Source: Patescibacteria group bacterium (lineage in GTDB: Bacteria; Patescibacteriota; Patescibacteriia; JAXHNJ01). Taken from it: a stretch of DNA of 64,000 nt. The stretch is from contig JBDRMK010000017.1 of the NCBI GenBank assembly GCA_043812155.1, positions 77,824 through 141,823 of the forward strand. Reading direction: 5' to 3'. The notes below the pieces were generated by a model. It saw only the letters and a program-made list of their open reading frames with translations. It ran no database searches and was not told the DNA's origin. Position numbers and translations under genes: made by a program. This document shows, one piece after another, positions 5,005 to 63,543 of this stretch; within the stretch, counting starts at the first letter, position 1, and each line of letters opens with the position of its first letter.

Positions 5005-5007
5005 AGT

Positions 5008-17423: not shown

Positions 17424-17436
17424 AATTATTTGATCG

Positions 17437-31293: not shown

Positions 31294-31935
31294 TTATTTT
31301 TCCGCCTGAATAAACCAACGGCCATAATTACCCATTTTTATTTTCACTTTTTTAAATTTTAAAAAAAATCTTGCGATCTCTTTTTTAGTGAAAAAACTGT
31401 GCGGCAATCCTTTTTCCGGACCGGTTAAAGGAATATAGGTACCGGCGGACACCATTCGCTTTTTTTGAAAATGGTGCCACTCATTTATTTGCTGACAATC
31501 CGGCAAGGTAATCAGAGTTTTTCCGTTATTCCGTAAAGCCCGGAATATTCTATTTACTAATTTTCTAATTTGCGCTTTTTTGCCGTGCTGGAGAGTGTTA
31601 AACGAAAAAATAAAATCATATTTACCCGGCGGAATTTTATACTTAAACATATCGGCCTTTATTATCCTGGATTTATCCTTCAATAATTTTTTAGTCATTT
31701 TTACCGCCGATAGACTGGAGTCAATCCCGTCGGTTGCAAAGCCCAATGTTTGCAGATATTTGAGGTATCTTCCGTCACCACAGCCGATGTCCAAAGCGGA
31801 TTTTGAAGTAAATTTTGACCGTTTAATAAATTTTTTAAATGGCGGGTATATTTCGTAGCCGAGAGAAGCATAGGCCGGCCCGCCTTTCAAATAATTTTTA
31901 TAAATCTTATCCCAAGTGGTCAAATTAAACGACAA
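31294..31935 (-). CDS. Class I SAM-dependent methyltransferase.
   Basis: ALDIGCGDGRY motif I. Confidence 0.65.
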   Translation of the reverse strand: MSFNLTTWDKIYKNYLKGGPAYASLGYEIYPPFKKFIKRSKFTSKSALDIGCGDGRYLKYLQTLGFATDGIDSSLSAVKMTKKLLKDKSRIIKADMFKYKIPPGKYDFIFSFNTLQHGKKAQIRKLVNRIFRALRNNGKTLITLPDCQQINEWHHFQKKRMVSAGTYIPLTGPEKGLPHSFFTKKEIARFFLKFKKVKIKMGNYGRWFIQAEK

Positions 31936-34634: not shown

Positions 34635-35369
34635 TCAATGTGTGGTTTCGAATTTATAATTTCGGATTTCTAATTTTATATTAGCGCCCTCCGACCTTCC
34701 AATCCAGTCAATCTGCTGCTTTTTTATTTTTTCCAAAAAATCAACCTTATCCAAATCTTTGATTAAGCGGTCAGCATATTCAGTAATTTTAAAAAGCCAC
34801 TGCTTTTGATTTTTCTTGGTCACTTCTGCCCCGCATCTTTCGCACTTGCCCCCGACCACTTCTTCATTGGCTAAACCGATCTTGCAGGCTGGACACCAAT
34901 TGATCGGCATTTCTTTCTGGTAAACCAAACCGGCTTTGTATAATTGCAAGAATATCCACTGCGTCCATTTGTAATATTTCGGGTCGGAAGTATCAATCGC
35001 TCTTTCCCAGTCAAAAGAAAAACCCATCGCTTTCAACTGGCGGGTGAAATTGGCAATATTCTCCCGGGTTATATCTTGCGGTTTTCTTTTGACCTTTATG
35101 GCGTAATTTTCCGTGGGCAAACCGAAAGAATCAAAACCGATGGGGAATAAAACGTTTTCCCCTTCCATTCTTTTTTTTCGGGCCATAATATCAATTGCCG
35201 TGTAGGAACGAAGATGCCCCACATGAAGACCGTCGCCGGAAACATAGGGGAATTCTATCAGGCAATAATACTTATTCAGGGATTTATCATTGGCTAAAAA
35301 TAATTTTTGCTTTTGCCAAAAATCCTGCCATTTTTTTTCAATTTTACCCGGGCTAAAACCGTCGTTCAT
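34635..35369 (-). CDS. leuS: Leucyl-tRNA synthetase, N-terminal 244-aa catalytic portion, separated from the rest by an apparent frameshift.
   Basis: HIGH motif (HVGHLRSY), zinc-binding CPAC...CERCG, and [10 protein letters not shown] immediately before the expected editing domain. A TGA stop at 34635-34637 interrupts the frame. Confidence 0.8.
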
Positions 35370-44611: not shown

Positions 44612-45169
44612 TTAGCCTAATCTATTTTTTATATATTTAAATATTTTTTGGTATTCTTCTTCCTTGGAAAATGAAGTAGTATCAAGGAAAAAATCAAAAT
44701 TGTCCGGATTAAACACATCAATCCCGTATATTTCACGATACCGTTTTTCATCGCTTTTCATCCGTTCACGGTTTATCTGGAGAACATCCTCTACATTCGT
44801 CACCTGTCTGGCTTCATTCCTCATGCTGTTGATTTTAAAATCTTCAAAAACTCTTTTTGCCCCGATATTTTCGTCAACATCCAAAAATATTTTTAAGGAT
44901 TGGGGAATGAAATGGTAAGCGGTCCGACCTTCAATAACCAAATTGTCCTCTCTTTTTCCGATCTCAGACAATTGTTTGTCAACTTCTTTATCAATAGAAT
45001 GATCTTTCTCCCCTAATTTCAGATATTCAACCAAAGTCAGATTCTTCTTTTTGGAAGCGGCCCGAAAAATATCGCCCATGTAATACCTTTTATAGCCTAA
45101 GTCTTGGGCCAGTCTTTTGGCGATCGTTGACTTGCCGCTTCCGGGTTTTCCCGAAATGGAAATTATCAT
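44612..45169 (-). CDS. cmk: Cytidylate kinase-like P-loop kinase.
   Basis: P-loop ISGKPGSGKSTIAKRLA and ~185-aa length consistent with short-form CMP kinases. Confidence 0.6.
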   Translation of the reverse strand: MIISISGKPGSGKSTIAKRLAQDLGYKRYYMGDIFRAASKKKNLTLVEYLKLGEKDHSIDKEVDKQLSEIGKREDNLVIEGRTAYHFIPQSLKIFLDVDENIGAKRVFEDFKINSMRNEARQVTNVEDVLQINRERMKSDEKRYREIYGIDVFNPDNFDFFLDTTSFSKEEEYQKIFKYIKNRLG

Positions 45170-45191
45170 TTTTTATGATTTTTGATTTTCG

Positions 45192-47435
45192 TTAAAATCT
45201 TTTACGCGGGCTAAACGGTCTTCTCCCCCGGCCGCTTGAATCGTGCGAGTCGCGGGAAAAATTGTCATAACCGGCCGGCGCTTGCGATAAGGCCTTGACC
45301 GAGAGACTGACTCGGCCTCTTTCTTTATCCACGTCAACGACCTTAACTTTTATTTTGTCGCCGACCTTAACTATGTCGCTTACCTTATTGATCCTTTGGT
45401 AGGAAAATTCAGAAATATGGACCATGCCGTCATGGCCGGGAAATAATTCCACGATCGCTCCGATCTCCTTGCTTTCATTGTTCCGGTCCTTCAAGATCTG
45501 GGTGACCACGCCTTCATGGACTTCTCCGATGACCACTTCGCGCGTCAAATTTTTCACCCACTCAAGAGCTTTATTTCCCATTTCCGGATTATGAGCCGTG
45601 ATCAAAACCAGGCCGTCATCTTCAATGTCAATTTTTGTCACGTCGCGGCCGCCGCACTCATCAATGATCTTATTGATCGTTTCTCCGCCGCGGCCAATCA
45701 CTTCTCTTATTTGCTCCGGATCAATTCTTAAGGAATAGATCCGAGGGGCATACATGGAAAGTTCTTTTCTGGGAGCGGGAATCACGCCTTTTATCACATC
45801 TAAGATTTTCAGCCTGGCAATTTTGGCGGCCTCTAATGTTTCCTTACAAATCTGCGTATTTAGGCCGGAAACTTTGATATCCAGCTGCATGGCCGTAATG
45901 CCGTTTTCCGTGCCGGCGACTTTGAAATCCATGCCGCCGGAATGGTCTTCGATCCCCTGGATATCGGTTAAAATCTTATATTTCCCGCTTTTTTCATCCA
46001 TGATTATACCCATGGCGATGCCGGCGACCGGAGTCTTTATCGGCACCCCGGCGTCCATTAAAGCCAAGGATGAACCACAAACGGAAGCCTGGGAAGTAGA
46101 ACCATTAGAAGACAAGACCTCGGAAACAACGCGAATGGTATATGGAAAATCTTCTTTGGAAGGCAATACCGGCTCAAGCGATTTTTCCGCGAGAGCCCCG
46201 TGGCCGATTTCCCGCCGGCCCGCGCCCCGCAAAGGCGCCACTTCGCCGACGGAAAATCCGGGGAAATTATAATGATGCATGTATCTTTTTTTGCCTGATT
46301 CTTCCATGGTGTCCAGGGTCTGTTCGTCTCCGGGCGAGCCTAAGGTAACAATGGAAAGCACCTGTGTTTCGCCGCGGTTAAAAAGACCGGAACCGTGCGT
46401 CCGCGGCAAGAGCCCGACTTGAGCCGAAAGCGGTCTGACTTCGTCCAAAGCGCGGCCGTCTACCCGCACTCCATCTTCCAAGACAATTCGCTTGGCTTCA
46501 GCGTCCAGAAGTTCTTCCAATAGGATCAAACCCTTGGCCCGTGTTTCCTTGCTCACCTCGTTGTCTTCTTTTAAGACGGTATCCAACTCTTCTTTTAATT
46601 TGGTTAATTCCTCTTCGCGTTTGGTCTTATCTTTTGTCTTTAATAATTCTTTTATTTTTCCCGCCGCGAAATCTTTGACCTTGCCTTGAACTTTTTCAAA
46701 AGCTTCTCTTTCTTCTTCGTTTTCCCCTTCAAAATCGCCTGTTATTTTTTCCGAACCGACCTTTTTTCTCACTTCTTCCATCAGCTCGATCACGGTGCCT
46801 AAATTTTTCTGGGCAAAAACGATGCCTTCTATAATCACTTCTTCTGAAGTTTCATTGGCCTTAGCCTCCATCATGACCACTTTATCTTGGGTACCGGCTA
46901 CCACGAGATCAAAAGCGCTCTTTTCGCGGGCGGCATACGTGGGATTTAACACCCATTCGCCGTTTATCTGGCCGACTCGGGCGCAGGCGATCGGACCATT
47001 CCAGGGAATACTGGAAAGATGCAAAGCGCAGGAAGCGGCAATCAGGGAAATAATATCGGAATCATTTTCCTGGTCCACGGAAAGAACGGTAATCACCAAC
47101 TGCACGTCGTTCCTCATTTTCTGGTTGAAAAAAGGCCGCATGGCGCGGTCAACCAGCCGGGAAATCAAGATCGCGTCGTCGGAAGGCCGACCTTCCCTTT
47201 TGATAAAACGAGAGCCTTTTATTTTTCCGGCGGCATAAAGTCTCTCTTCGTAATCAACCAAAAGCGGGAAGTAATCAATGCCTTCCCTGATGTTGCGGCT
47301 CATCACGGCCGTGGCTAAAACCACGGTGTCGCCGTACTGAACCGTGCAGGAGCCGTGGGCCTGACCCGCGAGTTTGCCTGTTTCGATGATTAGTTTTTTT
47401 CCGGCCAATTCTCTTTCAAATCTTTGCACGGACAT
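45192..47435 (-). CDS. pnp: Polyribonucleotide nucleotidyltransferase (PNPase).
   Basis: Two RNase PH-like domains followed by KH and S1 domains ([13 protein letters not shown]...VHISE). 747 aa. Confidence 0.9.
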
Positions 47436-49581: not shown

Positions 49582-50319
49582 ATGCAAGAGGAAATAAAAA
49601 ACTTGATGGCGGATTTCATTAAAGCCAAAAAACAGGAAGTTAATTCGGCCACCCTCAATAATTACAGATTTTATCTTAACCGTTTTTTTTATCTTTTAAA
49701 CTTGTCAGGGCCGGAAGAACTTAATTATCAAACCGTCAGGGCTTTTCGGGGAAAATTAAATCAGCTAAAATTAAGCCCCGCCACGCAGAACTACCACCTG
49801 ATCGCCCTGCGATCATTCTTAAAGTTTTTAAACGAAGAAAACATCAACAACCTTGATCCAAAAAAAATAACTCTATATCCGGTGAAGATTTCCAAAAATG
49901 AGCCCGTGACAAAAAAAGAAATAGAAAAAATAATGGAAACACCGGACAAAGATGATGTTTCAAAAATTATCAACAAAAGGGACAAGCTCCTCCTGGAACT
50001 GCTTTTTTCCTCACAGTATAAAGTGTCAAAAATTGCCAAGTTGAAAATAAAGGAAGTCTCCGGTTTAAAAATTGGCGAGCAGGGAAAATACTGGCTAAAA
50101 TTGTATTTAAAATCCAGAAAGGATAAAAGCGAATTTCTTTTTATCCGCCATGACCGAGCTCAACCAAAAGCCATGCGCCATAAGCCATACGCCATAAGCC
50201 CTCTGACGGCACGCTCCATCCAAAGAATCGTCGCTTCTTGCGCCAAGAAAGCCGGCATTAGGAAAAAAATCACGCCGGAAAGCTTCAGAAATATTGCGAT
50301 AAATTATTTTTTTACTTAA
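49582..50319 (+). CDS. Tyrosine recombinase (XerC/XerD/phage-integrase-like) that is C-terminally degenerate; it lacks the catalytic RHR-Y region.
   Basis: The N-terminal SAM-like core-binding domain is recognisable (YRFYLNRFF...LSPATQNYHLIALRSFLKFL). The C-terminus ends ITPESFRNIAINYFFT with no HxxR or catalytic Tyr. Confidence 0.55.
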   Translation: MQEEIKNLMADFIKAKKQEVNSATLNNYRFYLNRFFYLLNLSGPEELNYQTVRAFRGKLNQLKLSPATQNYHLIALRSFLKFLNEENINNLDPKKITLYPVKISKNEPVTKKEIEKIMETPDKDDVSKIINKRDKLLLELLFSSQYKVSKIAKLKIKEVSGLKIGEQGKYWLKLYLKSRKDKSEFLFIRHDRAQPKAMRHKPYAISPLTARSIQRIVASCAKKAGIRKKITPESFRNIAINYFFT

Positions 50320-50330
50320 TCCTAATAACA

Positions 50331-50461
50331 TGCTATAATAAAATTAAATAAAATCGCCTTGGACGATAGGGAGCAAAAAACGAAAGGTCTCGCTTAAATA
50401 GAGCGTTTATTAAGCCAGGAACTATCGTCAATTATAACCGGCTAGCGTCGGTTATTTTTTA
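50331..50461 (+). promoter_or_regulatory. Candidate leader or small RNA upstream of the cation antiporter gene: extended -10 promoter, ~90-nt structured region and an intrinsic terminator.
   Basis: TGCTATAAT at 50331-50339. 8-bp stem gacgatag / ctatcgtc enclosing aaacg...cgttt. Terminator stem ataaccg-gctagcgt-cggttat followed by TTTTTT at 50434-50461, 30 nt before the antiporter ATG. Confidence 0.4.
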
Positions 50462-50491
50462 TCGCATTTTTAAGTTATTAATATATTTAAC

Positions 50492-51451
50492 ATGATATTT
50501 TCCATACTGCTATTAATTATGGGGCTGATAATTTTAATCGCGGGCGCCGAAGGACTGGTACGCGGTTCAACTTCGCTGGCGAAAAAAATCGGCATTCCCC
50601 CCTTGATTATCGGTTTAACCATCGTCGCTTTCGGCACCTCAATGCCAGAATTAATTGTCAATATTTTTGCCGCTCTGGAAAAGACCTCAGACATCGCCGT
50701 CGGCAATATCATCGGCAGTAATATTTTTAATATTCTATTTATATTAGGGCTGGTTTCGATTTTCCGCCCCTTGACGGTAAAGAGCAGCACTGTCTGGAAG
50801 GAAATTCCTTTCGCTCTATTGGCGATGATTATGGTATTCATTATGGGAAATGACAGTTTTTTTGATAAAACCGGATTAAACGCTCTGACCCGCACAGACG
50901 GTTTTTCGCTGATCGCCATGTTCCTAATTTTTATGATTTATATTCTCAGTTTGGCCAAAAAAAACAAGGACGAAGAGCAAGAAAAAATAAAAATATATTC
51001 TTGGGGAATATCCATATCGTTTATTTCTGGCGGATTAATTCTATTGTTCTTGGGAGGAAAACTTTTAGTGGACAGCGCTATAGTGCTCGCCCAGCTGGCC
51101 GGTTTGTCGGAATCGCTGATTGGCCTGACTATTGTCGCAATCGGAACTTCTTTGCCGGAATTAGCCACTTCCGCGATAGCCGCTTATCACCGACATAACG
51201 ATATTGCGGTGGGCAATATTGTCGGATCCAATATTTTTAACATTTTCTGGATACTTGGCCTGACGAGCTCTATTTTTAAACTTCCGTTTAACCCTGGCAC
51301 CAATGTGGATTTAACAGCCGGAATAATAGCGACTTTTCTGCTATTTATTTTCATGTTTATCGGAACTCGGAAAAAATTAGATCGCTGGCAAGGAGTTTTA
51401 TTTCTGATGTCGTACATCGCTTACACGATATATCTCATCATAAGAGGATAA
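50492..51451 (+). CDS. CaCA-family sodium/calcium exchanger (YrbG-like).
   Basis: Two alpha-repeat motifs GNIIGSNIFNILFILG and GNIVGSNIFNIFWILG. GTSMPEL and GTSLPEL motifs. ~10 TM helices. Confidence 0.8.
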   Translation: MIFSILLLIMGLIILIAGAEGLVRGSTSLAKKIGIPPLIIGLTIVAFGTSMPELIVNIFAALEKTSDIAVGNIIGSNIFNILFILGLVSIFRPLTVKSSTVWKEIPFALLAMIMVFIMGNDSFFDKTGLNALTRTDGFSLIAMFLIFMIYILSLAKKNKDEEQEKIKIYSWGISISFISGGLILLFLGGKLLVDSAIVLAQLAGLSESLIGLTIVAIGTSLPELATSAIAAYHRHNDIAVGNIVGSNIFNIFWILGLTSSIFKLPFNPGTNVDLTAGIIATFLLFIFMFIGTRKKLDRWQGVLFLMSYIAYTIYLIIRG

Positions 51452-51584
51452 ACATATTAATTGGCGGCGCAAGATATTCAATTGACTAATTTTCAGTTTT
51501 TTGTTATTTTTACACTACTTTTGTCCCTGTAGTTTCCGCCCGAGGCGGACCCGCCCTGGGCTGGCAACGGACAATTTATTTATG

Positions 51585-51656
51585 AGCCCCTGTAGTTCAA
51601 CGGATAGAACAACAGCCTTCTAAGCTGTGGATACAGGTTCAATTCCTGTCGGGGGT
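51585..51656 (+). tRNA. tRNA-Arg (anticodon TCT).
   Basis: Hand-folded cloverleaf: acceptor GCCCCTG / CGGGGGT with two G-U pairs; D-arm GTTC-AACGGATA-GAAC; anticodon arm ACAGC-CTTCTAA-GCTGT; T-arm ACAGG-TTCAATT-CCTGT; discriminator A. Confidence 0.75.
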
Positions 51657-51788
51657 AAATAACGAAATAATCATGGTGCCTGTGGTGTAGTGGTTCGCAC
51701 ACGACTCTGCCCGCCCCGCTCGCCAAAGACAAATTAAAATATTATTTCTATTATATAAATTAAAAACTTAATTGAAGGGTTGCAGAAG

Positions 51789-53585: not shown

Positions 53586-53783
53586 ATGGATATGGACGGA
53601 CAACAAAGAGAAAATATAAGACCGGGTTTGAAAGTGGCAATCGTCTTGAAAAAAGACCAGACTTCCGGTCGGCTGACTGAAGGAATAGTCAGGGATATTT
53701 TGACTAATTCCTCTTTCCATCCGCATGGCATCAAGGTCAGATTGGAAACAGGAGAAGTGGGAAGAGTTAAGGAAATTTTTTAA
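53586..53783 (+). CDS. YwbE-family (DUF2196) small conserved protein.
   Basis: IRPGLKVAIVLKKDQTSGRLTEGIVRDILTNSSFHPHGIKVRLETGEVGRV closely follows the YwbE family pattern. Confidence 0.7.
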   Translation: MDMDGQQRENIRPGLKVAIVLKKDQTSGRLTEGIVRDILTNSSFHPHGIKVRLETGEVGRVKEIF

Positions 53784-53788
53784 TCCCT

Positions 53789-54127
53789 ATGAACCCAATT
53801 GTTATTATCGTCATTGCCCAATTGCTATTCACGACTAGCGACCTGGTTGGTCGCCATTTTATGACTACAAATGGATTCACACTCAAGTCATTTTTAAGTT
53901 TGTGGTTTTTGGGATACTTTCTCATACGCAACATAGCAATGTTCGGTCAACTGTATGTTTTTTCAAAAATTGAGCTTGGACACTCAATGGCTTTATTCGG
54001 AGCGACATCAATCGTTTTGGCGAATGTGTTAGGCTTTTTGTTCCTGAAAGAAGTTTTGTCACCAGTAACATATATCGGTATTGTTTTAGCGATTGGGGCG
54101 TTCTTAATCCTTGCTGTCCGCATCTAA
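53789..54127 (+). CDS. Small four-helix membrane protein (DMT/EamA-like half-transporter or SMR-like).
   Basis: 112 aa with four hydrophobic segments. Confidence 0.45.
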   Translation: MNPIVIIVIAQLLFTTSDLVGRHFMTTNGFTLKSFLSLWFLGYFLIRNIAMFGQLYVFSKIELGHSMALFGATSIVLANVLGFLFLKEVLSPVTYIGIVLAIGAFLILAVRI

Positions 54128-54275
54128 CTTTTATAAATTTCAATGAAGAAAACTTTAAATCAAAAAGCCCGAATATATCTCTAGTGTTATGGCTTATTTT
54201 TTGTCCAGACGAAATTAGTTGCTCTTTCTGGCAGCCCTTCGGCCCGGCTCAGGGCAGGCTCCAAGAGCCAAAGAC

Positions 54276-54353
54276 TGCTGGGGGCTTCAGTTTTTGATAC
54301 CTCTAACATCTTAGTCTATTCTTAAACAAAAAAGGAAGCCCCCAGACCCCCAG
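54276..54353. repeat. 78-bp long-loop hairpin repeat (copy 1), stem ctgggggcttc / gaagcccccag, with a trailing agacccccagc.
   Basis: Near-identical (~90%) to the reverse complement of 60293-60370. Confidence 0.6.
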
Positions 54354-54699
54354 CACTCTAAAGTCTTTTAGTTACTGCTAATTTTTTACAGCGGGATTTT
54401 TTTATAAAATTAATATTCCACGTTTTTGCTACACGAGATACAGAAAACCAGGCGGACGAGGGGGCTCCGGGGGCAAAGCTGGAAGCCAAACGGCCACACG
54501 GGAAAACCTTGCCCTGCTCTCGCGGTTTTTTGCCCCCGGAACTTTTGCAACTTTTGGTTACAAAAGTTGAAATCATCAACCTAAAGCAAAAATTCAGTTA
54601 AACTACCAGGACTACACTCAAATAATAGATAAAGAAAAAAGAGATTCTTTAAAACCGCCCCTTTTCGCCCTAAACCGGGTTTTTTGGTAGAATATATAT

Positions 54700-55329
54700 A
54701 TGACTGAAGAAAAATACATCAGACTGAATACTGTTTTAAAGCCGCCGCAGGAAATTGTAGAAAAGGTAATTACTTTAAGCCAGGAAATCGGAAAAAAGCA
54801 CGCCGCGGAATTTATATTGGATGGCCGGAATTTTTTTCCTCATCTCACTCTTTATTCCCCGGAATATCCCCAAAACCGATTAGATGATGTCATGGAAAAA
54901 GTAAATATACTGGCGGAAGAATTTCCAGCCGTTAATATGGAATATAAGGGTCTTAGATCCGGCCAAGGCTTTATCGTTCTTGATTTTGCCCTGACTCCGG
55001 CCATCAAAAAAATGCACGAAACGATTGTAAAAATTTTGAATCCATTAAGGGAGGGGCATCACAAGGAAAAATATGACGCCCCGGATTACCAGATGAAAAT
55101 GTCCGATGAGCAAAAAAACAATATTATAAAATACGGTTATCCTGACGCGATGGGTTTATATCATCCGCATCTTTCTATCATTCGCCTGAAAGATGAAAAA
55201 ATCGCCCGGGAAATTTGCCAAAATTTAACCTGGTCAGAAAAAGAATTTACTATAGACACCCTGGCAGTCTATAAGATGGGAAAACACGGCACTTGCACGG
55301 AACTGGAGGCTGAATTCAAACTTTCATAA
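54700..55329 (+). CDS. 2H phosphoesterase superfamily protein (LigT-like 2'-5' RNA ligase / cyclic phosphodiesterase).
   Basis: Two H-x-T/S-x motifs (HLTLY and HPHLSII) with appropriate spacing. Confidence 0.55.
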   Translation: MTEEKYIRLNTVLKPPQEIVEKVITLSQEIGKKHAAEFILDGRNFFPHLTLYSPEYPQNRLDDVMEKVNILAEEFPAVNMEYKGLRSGQGFIVLDFALTPAIKKMHETIVKILNPLREGHHKEKYDAPDYQMKMSDEQKNNIIKYGYPDAMGLYHPHLSIIRLKDEKIAREICQNLTWSEKEFTIDTLAVYKMGKHGTCTELEAEFKLS

Positions 55330-55350
55330 AAAAATATTAACATAAAAAAT

Positions 55351-55378
55351 GACCCGCGGAAGATAACTCCCGCGGGTC
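55351..55378 (-). terminator. Intrinsic terminator downstream of purL.
   Basis: 9-bp GC-rich stem gacccgcgg / ccgcgggtc with a 10-nt loop, followed on the minus strand by ATTTTTTATG. Confidence 0.55.
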
Positions 55379-55399
55379 GGTTAAGGTTCATAAGAAAGT

Positions 55400-58300
55400 T
55401 CAGTTTCGTTCGCACCACTGCCTGGCGTTCTGGAACATCATAAGCCAGGGAGAAGCCTGGAGTTTTCCTCTCCAGTCTTCCGGCAGCCAGGGCCACTGCC
55501 AGGCCAAGAAAACGCGTTCCGGGTGCGGCATGATAGCCAGGTGCCGGCCATCGCCGGAACAAAGAGCAGCGATCCCGTTTCTGGAGCCGTTCGGGTTATA
55601 CGGATACTGCTCCGTCGGCTGGCCGTCATCATCCACAAAGACCGCCGGAACCAAGCTATAAGCAGCCGCTCCTTCCAGGATTGCCGGATCGGGACAATAC
55701 AGACGCCCCTCGCCGTGGGCCACCCAAATTCCCAGAGTTGATCCCGCCATATTGTTAAGCATTATGGAAGGACTCCTGAGAATCTTAGCGGTCACCCAGC
55801 GGGATTCGAAGCGTTCCGACGAGTTGCGGATGAAGCGCGGCTGCTTTTCGCTAGGTATCCCTTCCCAGGGCACCCAGCCTAAAAGCACCTCCAGCTGACA
55901 GCCGTTGCAGACACCGAGGGAAAACGTATCCGGCCTTTGGCGGAAACGCTCGAACATCTCGCGGAGCCGGCCGTTGAACTTAATGCTGCCGGCCCAACCC
56001 TTGGCGCTGTCCAGCACATCCGCATATGAGAAACCGCCGACAAAGACGGCCCCCCGGCAAGCCTCAAGCGAGTAGTCGCCGTTCAAAAGGTCAGTCATGG
56101 TGACATCCACGGAATTGAATCCGGCCAGATAGAAAGCCGAAGTCATTTCCCGGTCACCGTTACTGCCTTCCTCCCGGATGATTGCCACTTCAGGCTTAAC
56201 CGTCCGAAGCAGAACTTCCGGCGCGGTTGCTTGCGGCTCAAAGGAAAGGTAATAGCGAGGACCTTTTCGGTCGTGCCGTCCGGCCTGATCCAAGGCAAAC
56301 TTGAGATTCATCTGATGTTTCTCAAGCTCGTCGCTGATTGACTCCCACCAGGAAAGAAGGGTGGGAAGTTCAAGATCAGGCACGACTTCACGACCCTGCC
56401 GCAAGCTTATCCGGCGTTCAATTGTCGTCTTGCCTAAATCGTAAACCGGAACACCGCATTCACCCAAGAGGCTTCTTATCTCGGCTTCGTTTTCGGGCAA
56501 AACTTCCAAGACCGCTCCCAGTTCTTCCGAAAACAAGGACTCTATGACAGTCCCGTTATACGGCACTTCCACTTTTATCCCACTGTTGCCGGCCAGGGCC
56601 ATTTCCACCAGAGTCGTGATGAGCCCGGCGTCACTGATATCATGGCCGGCCAAAATCAGATCTCGGTCGATCAGCTTTTGGACAGACAAGAAAGTGTTTT
56701 TCAGCAAAGCGGGATCATCAACATCCGGCGATTCGTTGCCGATCTGCTGGTGGATTTGTGCCAGGGCCGAACCGCCCAAACGATGTTTGCCCGGAGCCAT
56801 GGTCAAGAATAAAAGAGAACTTAGCCCGGGCCGCTTGATGTCCGGAGTGACCACCTTGGTAATGTCAGGCACAGTGACATAGGCGGAAATAACCAGCTGT
56901 CCCGGCGCTTTGACGGTTTCATCGCCGACCCTAGCCGCCATGGACAGACTGTCTTTACCTCCGTCTACCGCCATACCCAACTTAATCATCAGGTCACGCA
57001 TCGCCTCAGCCGCCGCGCGCATTTTGGCGCCTTCACCTGGCATCTTGCCAGCCCACATCCAATTGGCCGAACATTTGACGTCGGAAAGGGAGCTAATCCG
57101 GGCGAACATCAGATTGGTCAGGCATTCCGCCACGGCCATCCGAGCCCCGGCTTGCGGTGAAACCAGCATCTTAATCGGCTGCTCCCCGATAGCCGTGGCC
57201 GCGCCTGTCAGACCGAAATGGCTTTGGGCCACCACACTGACGTCGGAAACCGGAAGCTGCAAAGGACCGCAGCACTGCTGTCGGGCGACGAGGCCGGTCA
57301 CGCTCCGGTCAACCTTGCGCACCAGGTACCCTTTCGAACCGACTGAAGGCAGGCGAAAGACTTTCTGAAGAGCTTCCGCCACGGACAGATCAGCCGGAAG
57401 AGAAAGAGGAGCAAGCGCGAGAGGCACGGGATCGATCACGAAGGTTTTCTGCGGCATGTGACAGAGGATTTTGCCGAGATCAAGATCGACGGGCCGGGAA
57501 CCATCCTGGGAGTCTGAGACCGTAATGCGTCCATCGCCGGTGATTTCCCCCAAGATCTCGCAGTTGACTTTCTCACGGGTGCAGATCGCCTTGAATTCGT
57601 CTACCCGGTCGGGAAAAATCAGAAACGCGTCGCGCTCCTGGTATTCCGCTCCCCAGATTTCTAGGAAAGACATGGTCGCGTCACCCACCTGAATCTGGCG
57701 GATGTCTACGCGGCCGCCGGCCGGCTCCACGAGCTCGGTCAGGACGTTGCAGGGTCCGCCCGCGCCTTGATCGTGAGCGACTCGGATGGGATTTTTTTCT
57801 CCCATCTCGACGCAGGCCCGTACAACACGGTTAAGTTTCTGTTCCTCTTCCGCGTCGCCGCGCTGAACCGCGTTGAAATCCAGTTCGGCTTTGTTTTCCC
57901 CCTGAATCATACTGGAAGCCGAACCACCGCCCATGCCAATTCGGTAAGCCGGCCCGCCGACCTGAACGATAACCAGGCCAGGGGTTGGCTTGTCCTTTTT
58001 GATATGGCGGTCGTCAATCTGACCCACGCCGCCAGTGAACATGATTGGTTTGATCCATTCACGACGTTCACCGTCAGGCAGTCTCAGACCGAAAGTCCGG
58101 ACAAATCCCTGAGTAACCGGCTCGCCAAACTTATTCCCATAGTCAGAAGCACCATTGCTCTCTTCTATCAGGATGGTAAGCGGAGAAGCCAGATTGCTAG
58201 GATACTCGAAGTCCGGGTTTTCGCCGGGTATCGTGTAATCGGGAATATTGAGATTTCCCACGCAATAACCGGCGGTTCCCGCGATCACCAAGCCGCCCTG

Positions 58301-59242
58301 ACCGACACATTGACCGTCACGGATACGCCCGCCTGTTCCGGTAGTGGCACCGGGGAAAGGAGCGACTCCGCTGGGAAAATTGTGGGTCTCGGCGGTAAAA
58401 GTAATGTGGTACAAACGAGTCTCCAGGGAAAAAGGCGAGCAAATTCCAGGGGCGTTCGGAATGAGCGTCAGAATTTGATACCCTCGGATACTGCTGGCAT
58501 CGTCGCTGAAACCGATGATGCTGTTCCCCGGATTGGCCTGAAGCGTGGACTTAACGATCTCGAAAAGAGTCTCGGGAAGTTCCTGTCCGTTCTGGACCAT
58601 TTTTCCCTTGAAGAACCAGTGGCGGGAATGTTCGCTGTTGGCTTGTCCCAACTGAAAACATTCCGCGTCTGTGGGATCAAGGCCGATGTCATTCACAAAC
58701 AGGTTGAAGTAAAAATCAAGATCCCACGCATCCATGCCCAGACCCATTTCCCGGTTAATGTTTGCCAAAGCGCCGATTCTCTCTTTCCTTAAGGGAATTA
58801 TTCGAACGAGCTTTGGAGCCATCCCGGTAGAAAAAGTGCTGAGCGGCTGAACATACTGGCATTCGGTCATGCGGTCGTGATGATTCGCCAAAAAAGCGGC
58901 TTCGTCACTTCCTTCCGGCAGGACATAGCGGCGGGACCGTTCAAGGCGGGTCACTTTGGTCAGGCCGCAGGCATGGCAGATGCCGACCGCGTTGGTTGAA
59001 AAAGCGGTGGCAAAATTCAAGCGCGGGCCGATTTCGATGACCGCGTTTGCTTGAGGCCCGGAAAGTAGAGAATTCTTATCCAGGTATAACGGCTCAAAAG
59101 TCTCGGCAAGAAGCCATATGAGAACTCTTTGCTCCTCGGCCGAGAGAGACTCCGATGTTTCCACATTGAAACAATATTCCATCTGTGGACTGATTCGGCG
59201 GTAGAAACGTTGCACCATTGAACTGTTTTCTTTTTTTCCCAT
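55400..59242 (-). CDS. purL: Phosphoribosylformylglycinamidine synthase, large single-chain form (FGAM synthetase).
   Basis: 1280 aa. N-terminal FGAM synthetase region, duplicated AIR-synthase-like domains, and a C-terminal glutamine amidotransferase with GVCNGCQ and HGEGR motifs. Markedly higher GC content than flanking genes. Confidence 0.9.
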   Translation of the reverse strand: MGKKENSSMVQRFYRRISPQMEYCFNVETSESLSAEEQRVLIWLLAETFEPLYLDKNSLLSGPQANAVIEIGPRLNFATAFSTNAVGICHACGLTKVTRLERSRRYVLPEGSDEAAFLANHHDRMTECQYVQPLSTFSTGMAPKLVRIIPLRKERIGALANINREMGLGMDAWDLDFYFNLFVNDIGLDPTDAECFQLGQANSEHSRHWFFKGKMVQNGQELPETLFEIVKSTLQANPGNSIIGFSDDASSIRGYQILTLIPNAPGICSPFSLETRLYHITFTAETHNFPSGVAPFPGATTGTGGRIRDGQCVGQGGLVIAGTAGYCVGNLNIPDYTIPGENPDFEYPSNLASPLTILIEESNGASDYGNKFGEPVTQGFVRTFGLRLPDGERREWIKPIMFTGGVGQIDDRHIKKDKPTPGLVIVQVGGPAYRIGMGGGSASSMIQGENKAELDFNAVQRGDAEEEQKLNRVVRACVEMGEKNPIRVAHDQGAGGPCNVLTELVEPAGGRVDIRQIQVGDATMSFLEIWGAEYQERDAFLIFPDRVDEFKAICTREKVNCEILGEITGDGRITVSDSQDGSRPVDLDLGKILCHMPQKTFVIDPVPLALAPLSLPADLSVAEALQKVFRLPSVGSKGYLVRKVDRSVTGLVARQQCCGPLQLPVSDVSVVAQSHFGLTGAATAIGEQPIKMLVSPQAGARMAVAECLTNLMFARISSLSDVKCSANWMWAGKMPGEGAKMRAAAEAMRDLMIKLGMAVDGGKDSLSMAARVGDETVKAPGQLVISAYVTVPDITKVVTPDIKRPGLSSLLFLTMAPGKHRLGGSALAQIHQQIGNESPDVDDPALLKNTFLSVQKLIDRDLILAGHDISDAGLITTLVEMALAGNSGIKVEVPYNGTVIESLFSEELGAVLEVLPENEAEIRSLLGECGVPVYDLGKTTIERRISLRQGREVVPDLELPTLLSWWESISDELEKHQMNLKFALDQAGRHDRKGPRYYLSFEPQATAPEVLLRTVKPEVAIIREEGSNGDREMTSAFYLAGFNSVDVTMTDLLNGDYSLEACRGAVFVGGFSYADVLDSAKGWAGSIKFNGRLREMFERFRQRPDTFSLGVCNGCQLEVLLGWVPWEGIPSEKQPRFIRNSSERFESRWVTAKILRSPSIMLNNMAGSTLGIWVAHGEGRLYCPDPAILEGAAAYSLVPAVFVDDDGQPTEQYPYNPNGSRNGIAALCSGDGRHLAIMPHPERVFLAWQWPWLPEDWRGKLQASPWLMMFQNARQWCERN

Positions 59243-59310
59243 GATTTACAACCTTCCTTTCTGGAGTGCTTCCGTTTGACAGTAAACTAAATAACTAGTT
59301 TTTATCTTGA

Positions 59311-59334
59311 CGCTAATCTTAAACAAGATTAGCG
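59311..59334. promoter_or_regulatory. Perfect 10-bp inverted repeat cgctaatctt-aaac-aagattagcg in the divergent purL / M23 promoter region; candidate operator overlapping a TTGACG -35-like hexamer.
   Basis: Read directly from the sequence. Its half-site GCTAAT recurs in other intergenic palindromes in the window. Confidence 0.35.
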
Positions 59335-59477
59335 CTAATCAGTGCTTATTTTTCGCATTTTTTCAATGAACTAGTTAAAGTATCTTATACTATTAATAAG
59401 ACAACTGTCAATCAGTTTCACTGGTCTATAATTAAAGAGAAAGGGCGCTAAAAGTTATATTATGTTATGATAATTAC

Positions 59478-60197
59478 ATGAAAAAAAATCTCCAAATCCT
59501 TATCATCTTGGCAGTTATCCTTGTGGCCGGATTAGGTGTATTTTTATTTATCAAAAAAACAGGACCGGCCTGCTCAAAAAACGCAGATTGCCGAAATATA
59601 AATATTCGACAAAATGTCAATATCAATCAAAATATTAACACTACTCGGCAAAATACTAATATCACTCAAAATGTTAACGCGACTAGCAACTCTAACTTTC
59701 AGCCGCCTTTAACAAGAGCTGGGGAAAGAGTGACGAAAAAACCCTTCGGCATTTACATTACAAAAGACAATTCGCCGGTCCAGCCGGAAAGATTTGCGGG
59801 TTATCATACCGGGACTGATTTTGAAGTTTTTCCCGAGGAATTAAATACAGAAGTACCGGTACATGCAGTCTGTTCGGGAACCTTAAAATTAAAAGAAACC
59901 GCCTCGGGCTACGGCGGGGTAGCCGTGCAAAATTGCGAATTAAACGGCGCCGCGATTACCGTTATCTACGGCCATTTGAAACTATCGAGTATTACTAAAA
60001 TAGCGGGCGAGAATTTAACTGTCGGTGAAACCTTAGGAATCTTAGGCGACGGATACAGCGCCGAAACCAATGGCGAACGTAAACATCTGCATCTGGGTTT
60101 CCATAAAGGCACTGCTACCAATATTAAGGGTTATGTCAGCCTGGAAAGCCAGCTCTCTGATTGGATAAACCCGTGTTTGTATGTTTGCCACAATTAG
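59478..60197 (+). CDS. Membrane-anchored M23-family metallopeptidase.
   Basis: N-terminal TM. HTGTDFEV and HLHLGFHKG zinc-ligand motifs. Confidence 0.75.
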   Translation: MKKNLQILIILAVILVAGLGVFLFIKKTGPACSKNADCRNINIRQNVNINQNINTTRQNTNITQNVNATSNSNFQPPLTRAGERVTKKPFGIYITKDNSPVQPERFAGYHTGTDFEVFPEELNTEVPVHAVCSGTLKLKETASGYGGVAVQNCELNGAAITVIYGHLKLSSITKIAGENLTVGETLGILGDGYSAETNGERKHLHLGFHKGTATNIKGYVSLESQLSDWINPCLYVCHN

Positions 60198-60292
60198 CCG
60201 CATAAATCCGAAGCACGAAATCCTAAATCCTAAACAAATTCAAAATTCGAAACTCCGATTAAAAAATTAGCTATCAGTAAAGATTTTAGAAC

Positions 60293-60370
60293 GCTGGGGT
60301 CTGGGGGCTTCCCTTTTTTGTTTCAGAATAAACAAAGATGTTAGTAGTATCAAAAACAGAAGCCCCCAGG
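60293..60370. repeat. 78-bp long-loop hairpin repeat (copy 2), inverted relative to copy 1.
   Basis: gctggggtctgggggcttccc...cagaagcccccagg. The reverse complement aligns with 54276-54353. Confidence 0.6.
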
Positions 60371-60521
60371 GCTTTTGGTTCTTTTGGCATCAAAAGAACA
60401 AACAATTATACCTAAACAAAAAATCAGACAAACCACTAATAATGTGTTTGGTTTTAAGCTATCCTTTTCGCCCTCAACCAGGTTTTTTGATATACTCTAA
60501 ATATACTATTAAACTATTAAT

Positions 60522-61146
60522 ATGAAAGCGGTCATCTTCGACATGGACGGCGTGGTCTCGGACACCCAAAAGTATCAGGCCGAGGCCGAATCAAAATTAC
60601 TTTTAAGATCCGGGATACATATGTCCCCTGACGAAATAACGGCTAAATACGCCGGCGTGTCCGATTACGAATGGTTTAAGGATATGTTTGCCCAGGCCGG
60701 CCAGCCGGTTGATCTTAAAAAAATAGTGAGGGAAAAATGGAAAATAGTCTTTGAGATCGCCACCGGCCGTATCCAACCGATCAAAGGAGCAACAGCGCTG
60801 ATAAAAAATTTAAAGGAAAAAGGATTCCCTCTCGCTATTGCCTCAGCCTCCGCTAAGCCATTTATTAATCTGGTAATGAAAGAATTGAGTTTGGAAAATG
60901 TTTTTGATGTTTTAGTCAGTTCAACGGAAGTCGCCAAAGGCAAACCAGCCCCGGATATTTTTTTATTGGCCGCCGAAAAATTAGGCGTCGCACCTTTAGA
61001 CTGCGTCGTAATTGAAGACGGAATTAAAGGAATGGAAGCGGCCAAAACGCCGGCATGAAATGCCTTGGACTGGTCGCCGATAAAAACGGAAATTATCCCG
61101 CCGATGTTCTCGTTAATTCTCTGGCTGAGATAGAAATTGATTTTTT
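60522..61146 (+). CDS. HAD-superfamily hydrolase (beta-phosphoglucomutase-like) interrupted by an apparent 1-nt frameshift near its 3' end.
   Basis: Motif I FDMDGVVSDT. The frame stops at 61056-61058 after AAKTPA. The +1 frame continues as AGMKCLGLVADKNGNYPADVLVNSLAEIEIDFLKK, which is the expected HAD C-terminus. Confidence 0.65.
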
Positions 61147-61168
61147 AAAAAAATAATATAATTAATCT

Positions 61169-61375
61169 ATGAAAAAATCTTACCTCATTATCCTTATCGT
61201 TGTCATTCTGGTCGGGGCCGGCCTGGCTTTTTATTTCACTGGCGGCAAAGAATGCAAAGATCTAAATGAGCAAGAATGTAAAAAAGACGACCGCTGCCTT
61301 TCCACCCTTATCCCCTGCACCGATCCCACCTGCACTTCTGACGCGGTTTTCAAGGAATGCAAAGATAAAAAATAA
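61169..61375 (+). CDS. Small membrane-anchored Cys-rich protein, hypothetical.
   Basis: N-terminal TM followed by CK-rich KECKDLNEQECKKDDRC...CTDPTCTSD. Confidence 0.4.
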   Translation: MKKSYLIILIVVILVGAGLAFYFTGGKECKDLNEQECKKDDRCLSTLIPCTDPTCTSDAVFKECKDKK

Positions 61376-61474
61376 TAGATCTGCTATCCGCCTGGCTGGT
61401 GTTTTTAAATTTGCCTGGCTTTATAAATTAGAATATAATATATATATATTTTTTAGCAATCATTAAAAAATAAT

Positions 61475-62089
61475 ATGCCGGAAGAAATTAACCAAGAACA
61501 AAACAAAGTTATTAGAGAAATAAAAGACAACACGGCCAACCCCGCGGCTTTAGGCCTGTTGGGGTTCGGGATGACCACGGTGCTTTTAAATCTGCATAAC
61601 GCCGGATTTTTCCCGTTAAGCGCCGTGATTCTAGGGATGGGCATATTTTACGGCGGACTGGCCCAGGTGATCGCCGGAATCATGGAATGGGAGAAAAACA
61701 ATACTTTCGGCGCCACTGCTTTCACCTCTTACGGTTTTTTCTGGCTTTCTTTAGTAGCGATCTGGGTGATACCGGCGATAGGCTGGTCAAAAGCGCCTGA
61801 TAATTCAGCCATGGCCGCCTACCTTTTTATGTGGGGCTTTTTTACCGCGGTGATGTTCTTCGGCACCCTGAAAATGAACCGCGCCTTGCAGTTCGTTTTT
61901 GCCTCCCTGGCCATCCTGTTTTTCTTGCTCGCCCTTGGCGACGCTACCGGAAACACTCTTTTAAAACAGATCGCCGGCTATGAAGGGATCATCTGCGGCT
62001 TATCCGCCGTCTATACCGCTTTGGCTTTGGTGCTGAATGAAGTCTACGGAAAAACTATCCTGCCCATCTGTCCGGTAAAAAAAGATTAG
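61475..62089 (+). CDS. satP: GPR1/FUN34/YaaH-family acetate/succinate transporter.
   Basis: [24 protein letters not shown] signature and six TM helices. Confidence 0.8.
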
Positions 62090-62114
62090 GGTTAAATACT
62101 AATTCAAATAAACA

Positions 62115-62156
62115 AAAAATACTCATCTTGCGACGGGTATTTTTTGTTTATCTTAT
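62115..62156. terminator. Bidirectional terminator-like hairpin between the convergent satP-like and cspA genes.
   Basis: 12-bp AT-rich stem aaacaaaaaata / tattttttgttt with a 16-nt GC-containing loop; T-runs on both strands. Confidence 0.45.
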
Positions 62157-62164
62157 GAGATAAT

Positions 62165-62362
62165 TTAAGCTTTGCTGACTTTCACAGCCGCGGGACCCTT
62201 TGGGGTGTCAGAGACTTCGAAAGTGACCGCGTCGCCTTCTCTTAAGTCGCTGAAAGCCACTCCCACCAGTTCATTGGCGTGGAAAAACAGGTCTTTCTGG
62301 TTGCCTTCGGCGGTGATAAAGCCGAAGTTCTTGTCGGTCAGCTTTTTTATTGTTCCTTGCAT
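62165..62362 (-). CDS. cspA: Cold-shock protein (CspA family).
   Basis: GTIKKLTDKNFGFITAEGNQKDLFFH RNP-1-like motif. 65 aa. Confidence 0.85.
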   Translation of the reverse strand: MQGTIKKLTDKNFGFITAEGNQKDLFFHANELVGVAFSDLREGDAVTFEVSDTPKGPAAVKVSKA

Positions 62363-62601
62363 AGCAATTGAAAAATAAAGATTGATTAAGATATAGTAAC
62401 CTTTGAAATTCGACTAAATTTTTCAATACTTACTATATTTTTGAACGACTGTCCGGAAGAATAAATTTTACTGCCAGCCAGTTGTTCATAAGTATGATAC
62501 CAGAGATTGACAATAAAGTCAATCCCGGCCGGACTGGCTATGATGCAAATTTTTCTGTATACTTAATTTAAGATAAATATTTATTAATACGCTAAAATTT
62601 T

Positions 62602-63531
62602 ATGCCTGGAAAAGAATCACTCGAGGGAAGAGAAATTCCGCCTGATTTATCGGCTTTGGATTTAAACAGTCTGCAAAAAGAGGCGGAAGAATATAATCAC
62701 CGTTTTAACGCCGGAACTATGATGGCCGATATGCTTAAAGCACACGTACGAAATGAAGAGCTACCGCCACAGAAGGCAACAGACCGTGAACCACCCTTGG
62801 AAAGAATAAAACTTCAATACGCCGATCTTATTGGCCGCACCGGCATCAGCTTGGAAACAATAGGCACTAACCGTATCTTTGGGGCGGACGGAGAAAGACA
62901 GGCTTCCGAACTTCGTTTTAATCTGTCTGACCGAAACAAATTTATTGAATACTTAAAGTCAATCCCGCCGGAAAATCTCAGCCCTTCGCAGGCTGAAGGG
63001 TTAAAAACCGTGGCCGAAAGCCTGACCACCCAACTCGCCCAAGAATACCAAGTGACAAATCCCAAAGACGAAAGAATGATTGAACTTTTAGGCGGACTAA
63101 AAGAGATGAACCAAGCTTACGACCGTCTTGATCCGGAAAAACAAAACGGCTTGAGCCGGGCGGTGGAACGACTAAAAAAATATGACCGGGCGTCTCAAGG
63201 CAAACACTTGAAGGAATATATCGCCGTGGAAAAAGCCGGCCTGATGGCCGAGGTAGGCGGCCGTAATTTCGGCCCGAGCCAATGGCATACCGATGCCACG
63301 CCGGAATTTTACGAAGAACATTGGCAACAGGCCTTAGAGATATTAAAAAGCCTGGGCGATAATCCGCAGGCCCAAAACTTACAAGACCAAGTCCGGGAAA
63401 ATTTAAAAGCCTCTCTGGCCCATGCGAGAGAGAATTTGGAACGGAATGAAGAATCACATCTGGCTAATAGCAGAGAAGCTTTTTTTCTGCAAGTAATCTC
63501 TCGGGCGGAAAAAGAATTAGCAAAAATATAA
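62602..63531 (+). CDS. Hypothetical protein, 309 aa, helical and charged.
   Basis: ORF only. Confidence 0.45.
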   Translation: MPGKESLEGREIPPDLSALDLNSLQKEAEEYNHRFNAGTMMADMLKAHVRNEELPPQKATDREPPLERIKLQYADLIGRTGISLETIGTNRIFGADGERQASELRFNLSDRNKFIEYLKSIPPENLSPSQAEGLKTVAESLTTQLAQEYQVTNPKDERMIELLGGLKEMNQAYDRLDPEKQNGLSRAVERLKKYDRASQGKHLKEYIAVEKAGLMAEVGGRNFGPSQWHTDATPEFYEEHWQQALEILKSLGDNPQAQNLQDQVRENLKASLAHARENLERNEESHLANSREAFFLQVISRAEKELAKI

Positions 63532-63543
63532 TAATGCCCCCTC

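Follow-up and report, generated by a model that had tools for sequence, protein, structure and literature searches.

A single purL gene within a compact operon of a Patescibacteria genome, and a structured intergenic element beside it

The stretch of DNA analysed here, 64,000 nucleotides of contig JBDRMK010000017.1 from a Patescibacteria group bacterium (hereafter the window), carries a GC-rich purL gene between two hairpin repeats in inverted orientation. A first-pass annotation had taken the 6.1-kb segment 54228–60370, with a LigT-like gene, purL and an M23 peptidase gene, for a horizontally acquired island, and its repeats for possible ends similar to those of miniature inverted-repeat transposable elements (MITEs) or for recombination scars. 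Our results point to another history, which we consider likely: purL alone was inserted in a compact operon, and the hairpin repeats are separate copies of a structured intergenic element, independent of purL and not the ends of a 6-kb island. A single purL, from a clade that would move between loci within Patescibacteria, would have entered an ancestral compact run of DUF2196, LigT, M23 and HAD genes, between LigT and M23 and in the opposite direction, bringing along its terminator and a promoter spacer of 235 nt. Three copies of the element (A, B and C) would have entered, or been duplicated into, the spacers beside LigT and M23 independently of purL. The spread would have been by duplication or recombination at the local scale, and LigT, cut off by the breaking of the operon, may now be driven by copy C together with a copy of the HAD promoter.

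Resident and extra DNA around purL

We separated resident from extra DNA by comparison with a 30.8-kb contig (L041), which was reached through the LigT homologue P0155 (75% amino acid identity) and is the sole syntenic comparator. L041 is collinear with positions 43617–64000 of the window, with blastn identities of 68–80%, and of 92–100% for the tRNA genes. The order common to both comprises an FG-GAP giant protein, Cmk, PNPase, NYN, S15, an integrase-like gene, tRNA-Arg, tRNA-His, a 213-aa gene and DUF2196. After DUF2196, the LigT, M23 and HAD genes of L041 are adjacent, with the LigT stop codon overlapping the M23 start codon (ATGA) and HAD starting 73 nt past M23. All three are resident genes on the plus strand of the window (MFH1366998, MFH1367000 and MFH1367001, from one Patescibacteria contig). 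The LigT-like 2H phosphoesterase (54700–55329; PF13563, 43.7 bits, and PF02834) has the 75% identical orthologue in L041; the M23 peptidase (59478–60197), whose 33.1 bits to PF01551 are barely above the cutoff of 28.7, shows 66% amino acid identity to the gene after LigT; and the HAD phosphatase (60522–61058; PF13419), just outside the right-hand repeat, shows 63% to the gene after M23. The family matches agree with the LigT-like and M23 genes already named in the first-pass annotation.

Absent from L041 are purL, a 112-aa open reading frame (ORF) and any copy of the hairpin element; a search of L041 with R2, a covariance model of the element built in this analysis, with filters off, gave only weak matches that on inspection were non-members. 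As delimited by the ATGA overlap of L041, the extra DNA at the purL site measures 4148 bp (55330–59477) and consists of the terminator, purL and the promoter spacer. The blastn synteny breaks at 55322 and 59649, with the N-terminus of M23 still alignable as protein. Other blocks are likewise found only in the window: 53786–54699, which holds the 112-aa ORF and copies A and C, the latter with a promoter motif; 60198 to around 60455, with copy B; 50295–51585, with a Na/Ca exchanger gene; and 61378–63543, with the acetate transporter gene SatP and a 309-aa ORF without family match. Judged by these blocks, the stretch around tRNA-Arg and tRNA-His is a hot spot of gene flux. Three extra blocks near purL are interleaved with LigT and M23 and, because these two genes are resident, the 6.1-kb segment is not one unit. 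From this one comparator we infer that purL is an insertion in the lineage of the window.

Both purL junctions contain an A-rich, ATGARAAAAAT-like sequence resembling the ancestral ATGAGAAAAATTATT, a possible target duplication, though its low complexity makes it too weak as evidence. A 99% identical contig from an independent metagenome (L035) runs from LigT through the terminator into the final purL codons, which rules out a chimeric left junction.

Of the usual marks of an island, absence from the syntenic relative is true of purL alone and false for the 6.1-kb segment. Family searches revealed no integrase, transposase or other mobility gene between 53.8 and 61 kb, and the nearest integrase-like gene (49582–50319) is syntenic in L041. 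We found no tRNA-derived att repeats for an island, and no direct repeats or target-site duplication outside the outer ends of A and B; the motifs at these ends (AAAAAATAAGC on the minus strand and AAAAAATCAGA on the plus strand) are mutually inverted, not direct. We therefore rejected the inverted repeats as termini of mobilised DNA, be it as island bounds or as MITE-like ends, because resident genes lie between them and the extra DNA forms three separate blocks. Like genomic islets near tRNA genes, purL is present or absent between syntenic relatives, is a compositional outlier, has its own promoter and terminator, and lies 3.5–8 kb downstream of tRNA-Arg and tRNA-His amid several other indels. 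Unlike them, it has no boundary integrase or tRNA-derived att repeat, and its only possible target duplication is the low-complexity A-rich sequence.

The purL gene, its signals and its composition

The purL gene (55400–59242, minus strand) encodes a large single-chain FGAM (formylglycinamidine ribonucleotide) synthetase of 1280 aa. Its product scores 1538.8 bits against the equivalog TIGR01735 (cutoff 1123) and contains all five Pfam domains of large PurL, in the order FGAR-AT_N, linker, AIRS_C/PurM-like halves and GATase_5. Its motifs are intact: GVCNGCQ at 1110, with the glutaminase nucleophile Cys; HPER at 1240; and ETHNFP...GTGGRIRD at 285, the ATP/FGAR (formylglycinamide ribonucleotide) site. 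The product is thus a complete large FGAM synthetase, predicted to carry out step 4 of de novo purine synthesis, and the single-chain type assigned in the first-pass annotation is borne out. Domain order and catalytic motifs are like those of known large PurL (TIGR01735/PRK05297; human PFAS; Salmonella PurL 1T3T), and the protein is closer to PDB 9n9w (1336 bits) than to 1T3T (812 bits). Unlike the known setting of large PurL, the gene is alone and inverted inside an unrelated operon, in a small-genome bacterium; family searches found no other pur gene among the ORFs of the 64-kb window.

The gene is followed by an intrinsic terminator (55351–55378, minus strand), with a 12-bp stem containing nine G-C pairs, a 4-nt loop and then ATTTTTT, which is kept in the strain contig L035 with a single change, in the loop. 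At the other end, the divergent purL/M23 spacer contains a perfect 9-bp palindrome, GCTAATCTT-AAAC-AAGATTAGC (59311–59333, read from the sequence), a possible operator or 5' untranslated region hairpin, and promoter-like hexamers on both strands (59382–59432). Both the GC-rich terminator and the palindrome had been pointed out before. The spacer shows no similarity to the upstream regions of purL relatives, and no leader is conserved across the five purL loci known to us (see below). The hexamer GCTAAT/ATTAGC occurs three times in the spacer (59311–59345), as the 9-bp palindrome plus a third half-site. In the element family this hexamer also makes up the conserved TTAGC motif of the 5' end, and it may be a common protein-binding site.

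The gene has 55.5% GC and 62.3% GC at third codon positions (GC3), with a peak of 59.4% GC in 57–58 kb, and ranks top in both measures among 37 window ORFs (z = 2.55 for GC and 2.34 for GC3). Its neighbours LigT and M23 have 39.7% and 42.1% GC, and the 6.1-kb segment minus purL has 40.2%; these values are close to the 57% against 38–42% estimated previously. The proposed check of composition along the sequence, carried out over the window, yielded purL as the top outlier, yet against a wide spread: the mean GC is 45.1%, 1-kb bins range from 34 to 59%, and the GC3 of ORFs other than purL ranges from 0.35 to 0.61, with SatP second at 0.610. GC3 also correlates with gene length (r = 0.50). Since the GC3 of PNPase is nearly equal in the window (0.545) and in L041 (0.544), the heterogeneity of the native genes is inherited.

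Relatives and origin of purL

In a neighbour-joining tree of the 119 top PurL hits, the protein from the window, 100% identical to P0001 (labelled 'Patescibacteria group bacterium'), groups with P0002 (75%) and P0003 (73%, also labelled Patescibacteria), and the sister group is formed by P0005 and P0006 (around 70%). The contigs of the latter two (L039 and L040) encode ribosomal protein L20 sequences that cluster at 90% with Patescibacteria L20, and the P0002 contig shows low GC and gene content like that of the candidate phyla radiation (CPR). The phylogeny, suggested earlier as a way to find the donor lineage, thus leads to Patescibacteria-type sequences, and only the next matches, at 64–67% identity, are labelled Actinomycetota and Acidobacteriota.

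The clade comprises five Patescibacteria-type contigs, and the gene neighbourhood of purL differs in each lineage. In all five, the GC3 of purL is above that of its neighbours: 0.62 versus a mean of 0.47 in the window, 0.425 versus about 0.32 in L001, 0.54 versus about 0.27 in L002, and 0.50 and 0.53 versus about 0.28 in L039 and L040. This raised GC3 is compatible with slow amelioration after descent from a much GC-richer source and equally with a bias or selection specific to the gene. Because purL is absent from the syntenic L041, is the top GC and GC3 outlier, and occupies different loci in relatives, we consider it acquired; it fits gene flux and a horizontal origin, not a recent 6-kb island. 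Of the acquired segment proposed before, therefore, purL stands, whereas LigT and M23, with their resident orthologues, do not.

Two further observations concern these relatives. In L039 (9673–10000) and L040 (9283–10000), purL lies directly downstream of tRNA-Asp, one or two duplicates of the 5' part of this tRNA lie ahead of the tRNA gene, and in L040 a GIY-YIG-like coding stretch, recognized by eye from the sequence, lies between the tRNA-Asp copies; the site looks like one of repeated integration. In L002, a 419-aa gene of the PurM superfamily (3990–5249; AIRS_C; 61 bits to TIGR00878, cutoff 236) is directly upstream of purL and has a GC as high as that of purL (51%, GC3 0.54) amid a neighbourhood of around 33% GC, which suggests co-transfer of both genes.

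A family of structured intergenic elements

The inverted hairpin pair described in the first-pass annotation as around 90% identical is real: its arms (54278–54368 and 60279–60369) are 82% identical over 91 nt, with a core of 90.5% over 74 nt, and the local alignment between the two extends over some 125 nt (54388 to 54263 against 60260 to 60383). The stem-loop-stem pattern has two matches in the window versus 0.00 expected (100 shuffles). R2 detects exactly three copies of the element in the 64 kb. Copy A (54214–54388, minus strand; 91.8 bits, E = 5.8e-22), the left hairpin of the original pair, includes an A-tract/TTAGC motif and an expanded second hairpin; copy B (60260–60428, plus strand; 105.8 bits, E = 1.3e-25), the right one, lies between M23 and the HAD promoter; and copy C (54454–54576, plus strand; 76 bits, E = 7.7e-18) lies back-to-back with A, upstream of LigT. 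Copy C was found by searching the window for the second hairpin, which in this copy spans 54548–54569; it has the stem GGGGGCAAAG/TTTGCCCCC (arm also written UUUGCCCCC) and a GC-rich loop, and is far more diverged than A and B, which are around 90% alike.

A metagenome scan for the stem pattern yielded 29 loci, mostly chance hairpins, among which L015, L019, L013 and L012 share far more than the stems. L015 is a 262-kb contig of a Patescibacteria metagenome-assembled genome (MAG) and L013, of 1.31 Mb, is from Candidatus Kerfeldbacteria; L019 and L012 have no taxon label. L035 contributes the eighth sequence of the family, with stem GGGGGUUUUG/CAAAACCCCC. The purL loci of relatives contain no copy detectable with R2, a scan of a genome collection with GGGGGCTTCNGTTTTTGATAC gave just two chance matches, in Flavobacteriales and Oscillospiraceae, and two scans of viral contigs gave nothing relevant. 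Searches of the window with Rfam 15 (4227 families) retrieved only tRNAs at gathering score and, at E ≤ 5 over 53700–61500, only two chance His_leader matches, at the purL terminator.

The conserved unit is of around 125–190 nt, longer than the 78 nt initially noticed. Read on the strand opposite to that on which copy A was first described, it starts with an A-tract and TTAGC(A), followed 23–26 nt on by GGGGUCU-GGGGGCUUC, a loop of some 46 nt, GAAGCCCCC-AG, a U-rich linker (CUCUUUGG) and a second hairpin, GUNCUUU(C)UG-NNNN-CA(G)AAAGNAC. The first stem is GC-rich and of about 16 bp, and the second hairpin is of 9–10 bp, expanded by an internal insertion in A and L012. The long loop falls into at least two sequence classes, and the spacing of the A-tract/TTAGC motif from the start of GGGG is fixed in six of the eight members.

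Conservation of the structure is strong. In the alignment of the eight sequences, pairing holds for 95.2% of cells, and at 11 of the 26 pairs both partners have changed; none of 500 shuffles reaches this pairing and covariation, controls with slid partners show 40–64% pairing, and folds of single sequences give z-scores down to −6.4. As to the strand, on the chosen one the big stem extends by five pairs, G.U occurs at two positions in seven to eight of the eight sequences, and RNAalifold yields −25.9 kcal/mol versus −20.7 on the opposite one. The compensatory changes fit an RNA and a DNA hairpin alike. The element is probably a structured intergenic repeat, prone to gain and loss and transcribed, with the G.U-permitting strand as the probable transcribed one (the minus strand of A and the plus strand of B and C).

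Several identities were tried and rejected. As an intrinsic terminator the element fails on both strands, because its loop has 46–47 nt (criterion 3–8) and no conserved U-tract follows either hairpin; short hairpins with T-runs inside A and B have no counterpart in members of the second loop class. Further copies of the repeat, which the first-pass annotation proposed to seek, do exist, namely C and the members in other genomes, but they are not terminators. A small ORF in the loop (ML[EV]VSKTEAP...) has its frame broken in L015 and no ATG in L019, L013 and L012, and neither Rfam nor ARAGORN gave a signal for the signal recognition particle, 6S, transfer-messenger or tRNA-like RNAs that the GGGG...CCCC termini might recall. 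The element is like the small and structured RNAs of Rfam in its size (about 120–190 nt), intergenic location, helices supported by covariation, and U-rich single-stranded linker between two hairpins; unlike small-RNA genes in that database, it has no Rfam match and no intrinsic terminator, and is known from sequence alone.

Placement and possible mobility of the element

The foreign copies are located in unrelated contexts, between convergent, divergent or co-directional gene pairs, and the loci that bear them show no synteny with the window. Contig L036, from a metagenome in which a 99.96% identical strain is present, breaks off within the copy C loop. L035 matches the window only from 54533, in the 3' arm of the big stem of C, and holds a different family member to the left; the element is thus polymorphic between strains. 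An inversion of the A–B segment was considered and is unsupported, as L036 reads through A in the orientation of the window.

The spacers also contain related promoters. The native HAD promoter region (TTTTTTGATATACT..., 60455–60521, plus strand) is kept in L041 without copy B, and a promoter-like motif upstream of LigT (54655–54699, plus strand) is its paralogue (direct repeat D1/D5, 72% over 67 nt); a weaker remnant of the motif follows copy A. In L041 no separate promoter precedes LigT; in the window the gene is preceded by C and then by this paralogue. An extended −10-like box, TGGTAGAAT, ends 8 nt before the LigT ATG with no Shine-Dalgarno sequence between them (54686–54702), and the LigT transcript may be leaderless. 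From this arrangement, the local copies would derive from duplication of a unit formed by B and the HAD promoter, and not from classical transposition, and the C unit may now supply LigT with its own promoter.

Single copies have no terminal inverted repeats. An imperfect direct repeat of 11 nt, AAAAAAT[TCA]AG[CA], brackets each of copies A, B and L015; the motif is A-rich and conserved across copies. The element appears to resemble the ERIC, REP-BIME, Correia and BOX intergenic repeats: it is intergenic, occurs in both orientations and across species, forms hairpins with compensatory changes, and shows internal insertions and a presence that varies between strains and relatives. It would depart from these families in its low observed density, in its lack of terminal inverted repeats and in having two unequal hairpins where they have a single long imperfect palindrome, and it is not known to be similar to them in sequence.

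The window also contains an ORF for an IS200-like Y1 transposase (7014–7709), in which the domain covers only amino acids 10–100 and the 3' half has two tandem, hairpin-rich repeats of 64 nt (7233–7365; 69-nt period, 81% alike). These repeats are unrelated to the element and R2 finds no copy there, so we rejected the element as a REP/REPIN of a RAYT.

Other features of the window

The gene content is typical of Patescibacteria, including giant surface proteins, a split leucyl-tRNA synthetase (LeuRS), KsgA, TsaC, PNPase, Cmk, a TraG-like ATPase and two tRNAs. LeuRS is divided between two minus-strand ORFs, one with the N-terminal catalytic part (34635–35369) and the other with the remainder (31925–34600), in which inserted NUDIX and serine/alpha-beta hydrolase domains separate the editing domain from the C-terminal catalytic half. 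Four very large ORFs (1054–1917 aa) are clustered at 9679–26454, with 48–51% GC; two have surface-type domains and two have no family match, and the cluster contains tandem repeats of 147–150 nt (18374–19376). The adjacent Cmk and PNPase genes (44612–47435), a pair kept in L041 (987–3802), encode the enzymes by which a 2026 preprint proposes that Patescibacteria live on host RNA.

The 112-aa ORF absent from L041 (53789–54127, plus strand; annotated as MFH1366997.1) has no assigned function. Its region (53769–54165) is present at around 86% nucleotide identity in L037 (873–1255) and L038 (1498–1892), among wholly different neighbours, and the homology ends 20–40 nt or less beyond the ends of the ORF, as for a small mobile cassette. 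Just past tRNA-Arg, at about 51674–51720, there is a tRNA-like 5' fragment (GGTGCCTGTGGTGTAGTGGTTCGCAC...) for which ARAGORN makes no call; its counterpart in L041 is a 210-aa gene.

Discussion

The history that we favour, insertion of purL by itself with the hairpin elements as independent neighbours, has to be weighed against other accounts of the same DNA. That LigT, purL and M23 arrived together as one island or composite element (54228–60370), with the repeats as its termini or scars, we regard as very improbable: the inverted repeat does flank the GC-rich gene and there are no further copies in the other 58 kb, yet this account is contradicted by L041, where the LigT and M23 orthologues adjoin. 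Their GC is host-like, transposases, integrases and outer direct repeats are lacking, copy C lies inside the supposed island, and the family occurs as single copies in unrelated contexts elsewhere. Even less probable is an assembly artefact in which a GC-rich purL contig of another organism was joined at the repeats; the GC jump at the gene boundaries, the nearby repeats and the breaks of independent-assembly contigs at copy C would fit it, but L035 crosses from LigT into the last purL codons at 99% identity, the closest PurL relatives are on Patescibacteria contigs of 42–698 kb, and the repeats lie away from the purL junctions. A more serious alternative, though still an unlikely one, is that purL is ancestral here and was deleted in the lineage of L041, its excess of GC being due to gene-specific codon selection. 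An intrinsic bias would indeed give a GC3 raised in all five carriers despite nearly saturated synonymous sites. Against deletion, it would have required the exact loss of terminator, gene and promoter spacer along with restoration of the 4-nt stop/start overlap; moreover, purL is inverted relative to the operon and occupies a different locus in each other carrier, and the nearby single-gene indels of the Na/Ca exchanger and SatP (GC3 0.61) show ongoing flux.

Regarding the element, the main competing explanation, to which we give a limited chance, is that the copies are paralogous genes for trans-acting small RNAs, with their own promoter (A-tract/TTAGCA) and close to purL by coincidence. The two-hairpin structure with compensatory changes across genomes, the fold z-scores, the tolerance of G.U on one strand only, the fixed position of the upstream motif in most members, and the single copies at other loci agree with it; what disagrees is the lack of a terminator after the element, a hexamer spacing of 14–15 nt, which is atypical for sigma-70, the occurrence of three copies within 6 kb with none in L041 and one replaced in a 99% identical strain, and the lack of any outlier in pairing between loops and mRNAs over 38 translation-start regions of the window. 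We find it rather improbable that the elements are cis-acting 5' leaders, similar to riboswitches or attenuators, controlling LigT, HAD and similar genes. Copies C and B precede LigT and HAD and point the same way as these genes, and the L015 copy is upstream of a co-directional 108-aa gene, with motifs shared among the downstream spacers; but no co-directional gene follows copies A, L013, L019 and L012, the LigT and HAD orthologues of L041 have no element, variability is highest in the loops, the aptamer on this account, and the element has no Rfam match. More speculatively, and as a tentative suggestion only, the element could be a module not described before and specific to Patescibacteria, be it a promoter/leader cassette that moves or duplicates or a family of small RNAs, that colonises spacers opened by insertions and restores, with a copied promoter, the expression of genes severed from their operon (LigT, possibly HAD), its long variable loop being exchanged between strains.

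A number of points weigh against the insertion of a single purL beside independent, transcribed elements. The right junction, between purL and M23, has no independent assembly support, and the choice between insertion and deletion rests on the argument of the ATGA overlap and on one syntenic relative. Fourfold sites between purL orthologues are near saturation, with identities of 0.32–0.46 versus 0.25 expected (0.575 for the close pair L039–L040), so the excess of GC is not simply the signature of a fresh donor. Other genomes show one element copy per 2–14-kb locus. The 21 core pairs of the element are nearly pure Watson-Crick (one G.U in around 170 cells) and the extension that bears G.U is invariant, for which reason the choice of strand, and of RNA over DNA, is weakly supported. 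Neither a scanner nor inspection found canonical promoter spacing or a terminator for the element on either strand.

To our knowledge, very little is known on the non-coding RNAs and repeat elements of these uncultured bacteria. The element described here is supported by covariation, new to Rfam, common to two or more labelled lineages of Patescibacteria (Kerfeldbacteria among them), and variable between 99% identical strains, and the R2 model is usable across all Patescibacteria genomes.

The purL case itself is ordinary, though neatly resolved, gene flux and involves no new principle. The first-pass annotation found it intriguing because reduced genomes usually lack purine synthesis. De novo nucleotide synthesis is reported to be lacking in 93% of Patescibacteria genomes, with a scattered phylogenetic distribution of the biosynthetic genes (bioRxiv 10.64898/2026.06.21.733656), and the supposed rarity is weakened by a report of the complete de novo purine pathway to inosine monophosphate in 32% of 399 CPR MAGs (PMC11608272); a pur gene in such a reduced genome is a minority yet known state. 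The insertion fits this scattered distribution of nucleotide-synthesis genes in the phylum, and provides a base-resolved example of how a biosynthetic gene would enter a reduced Patescibacteria genome: a single purL, with its own signals, in a translationally coupled operon.

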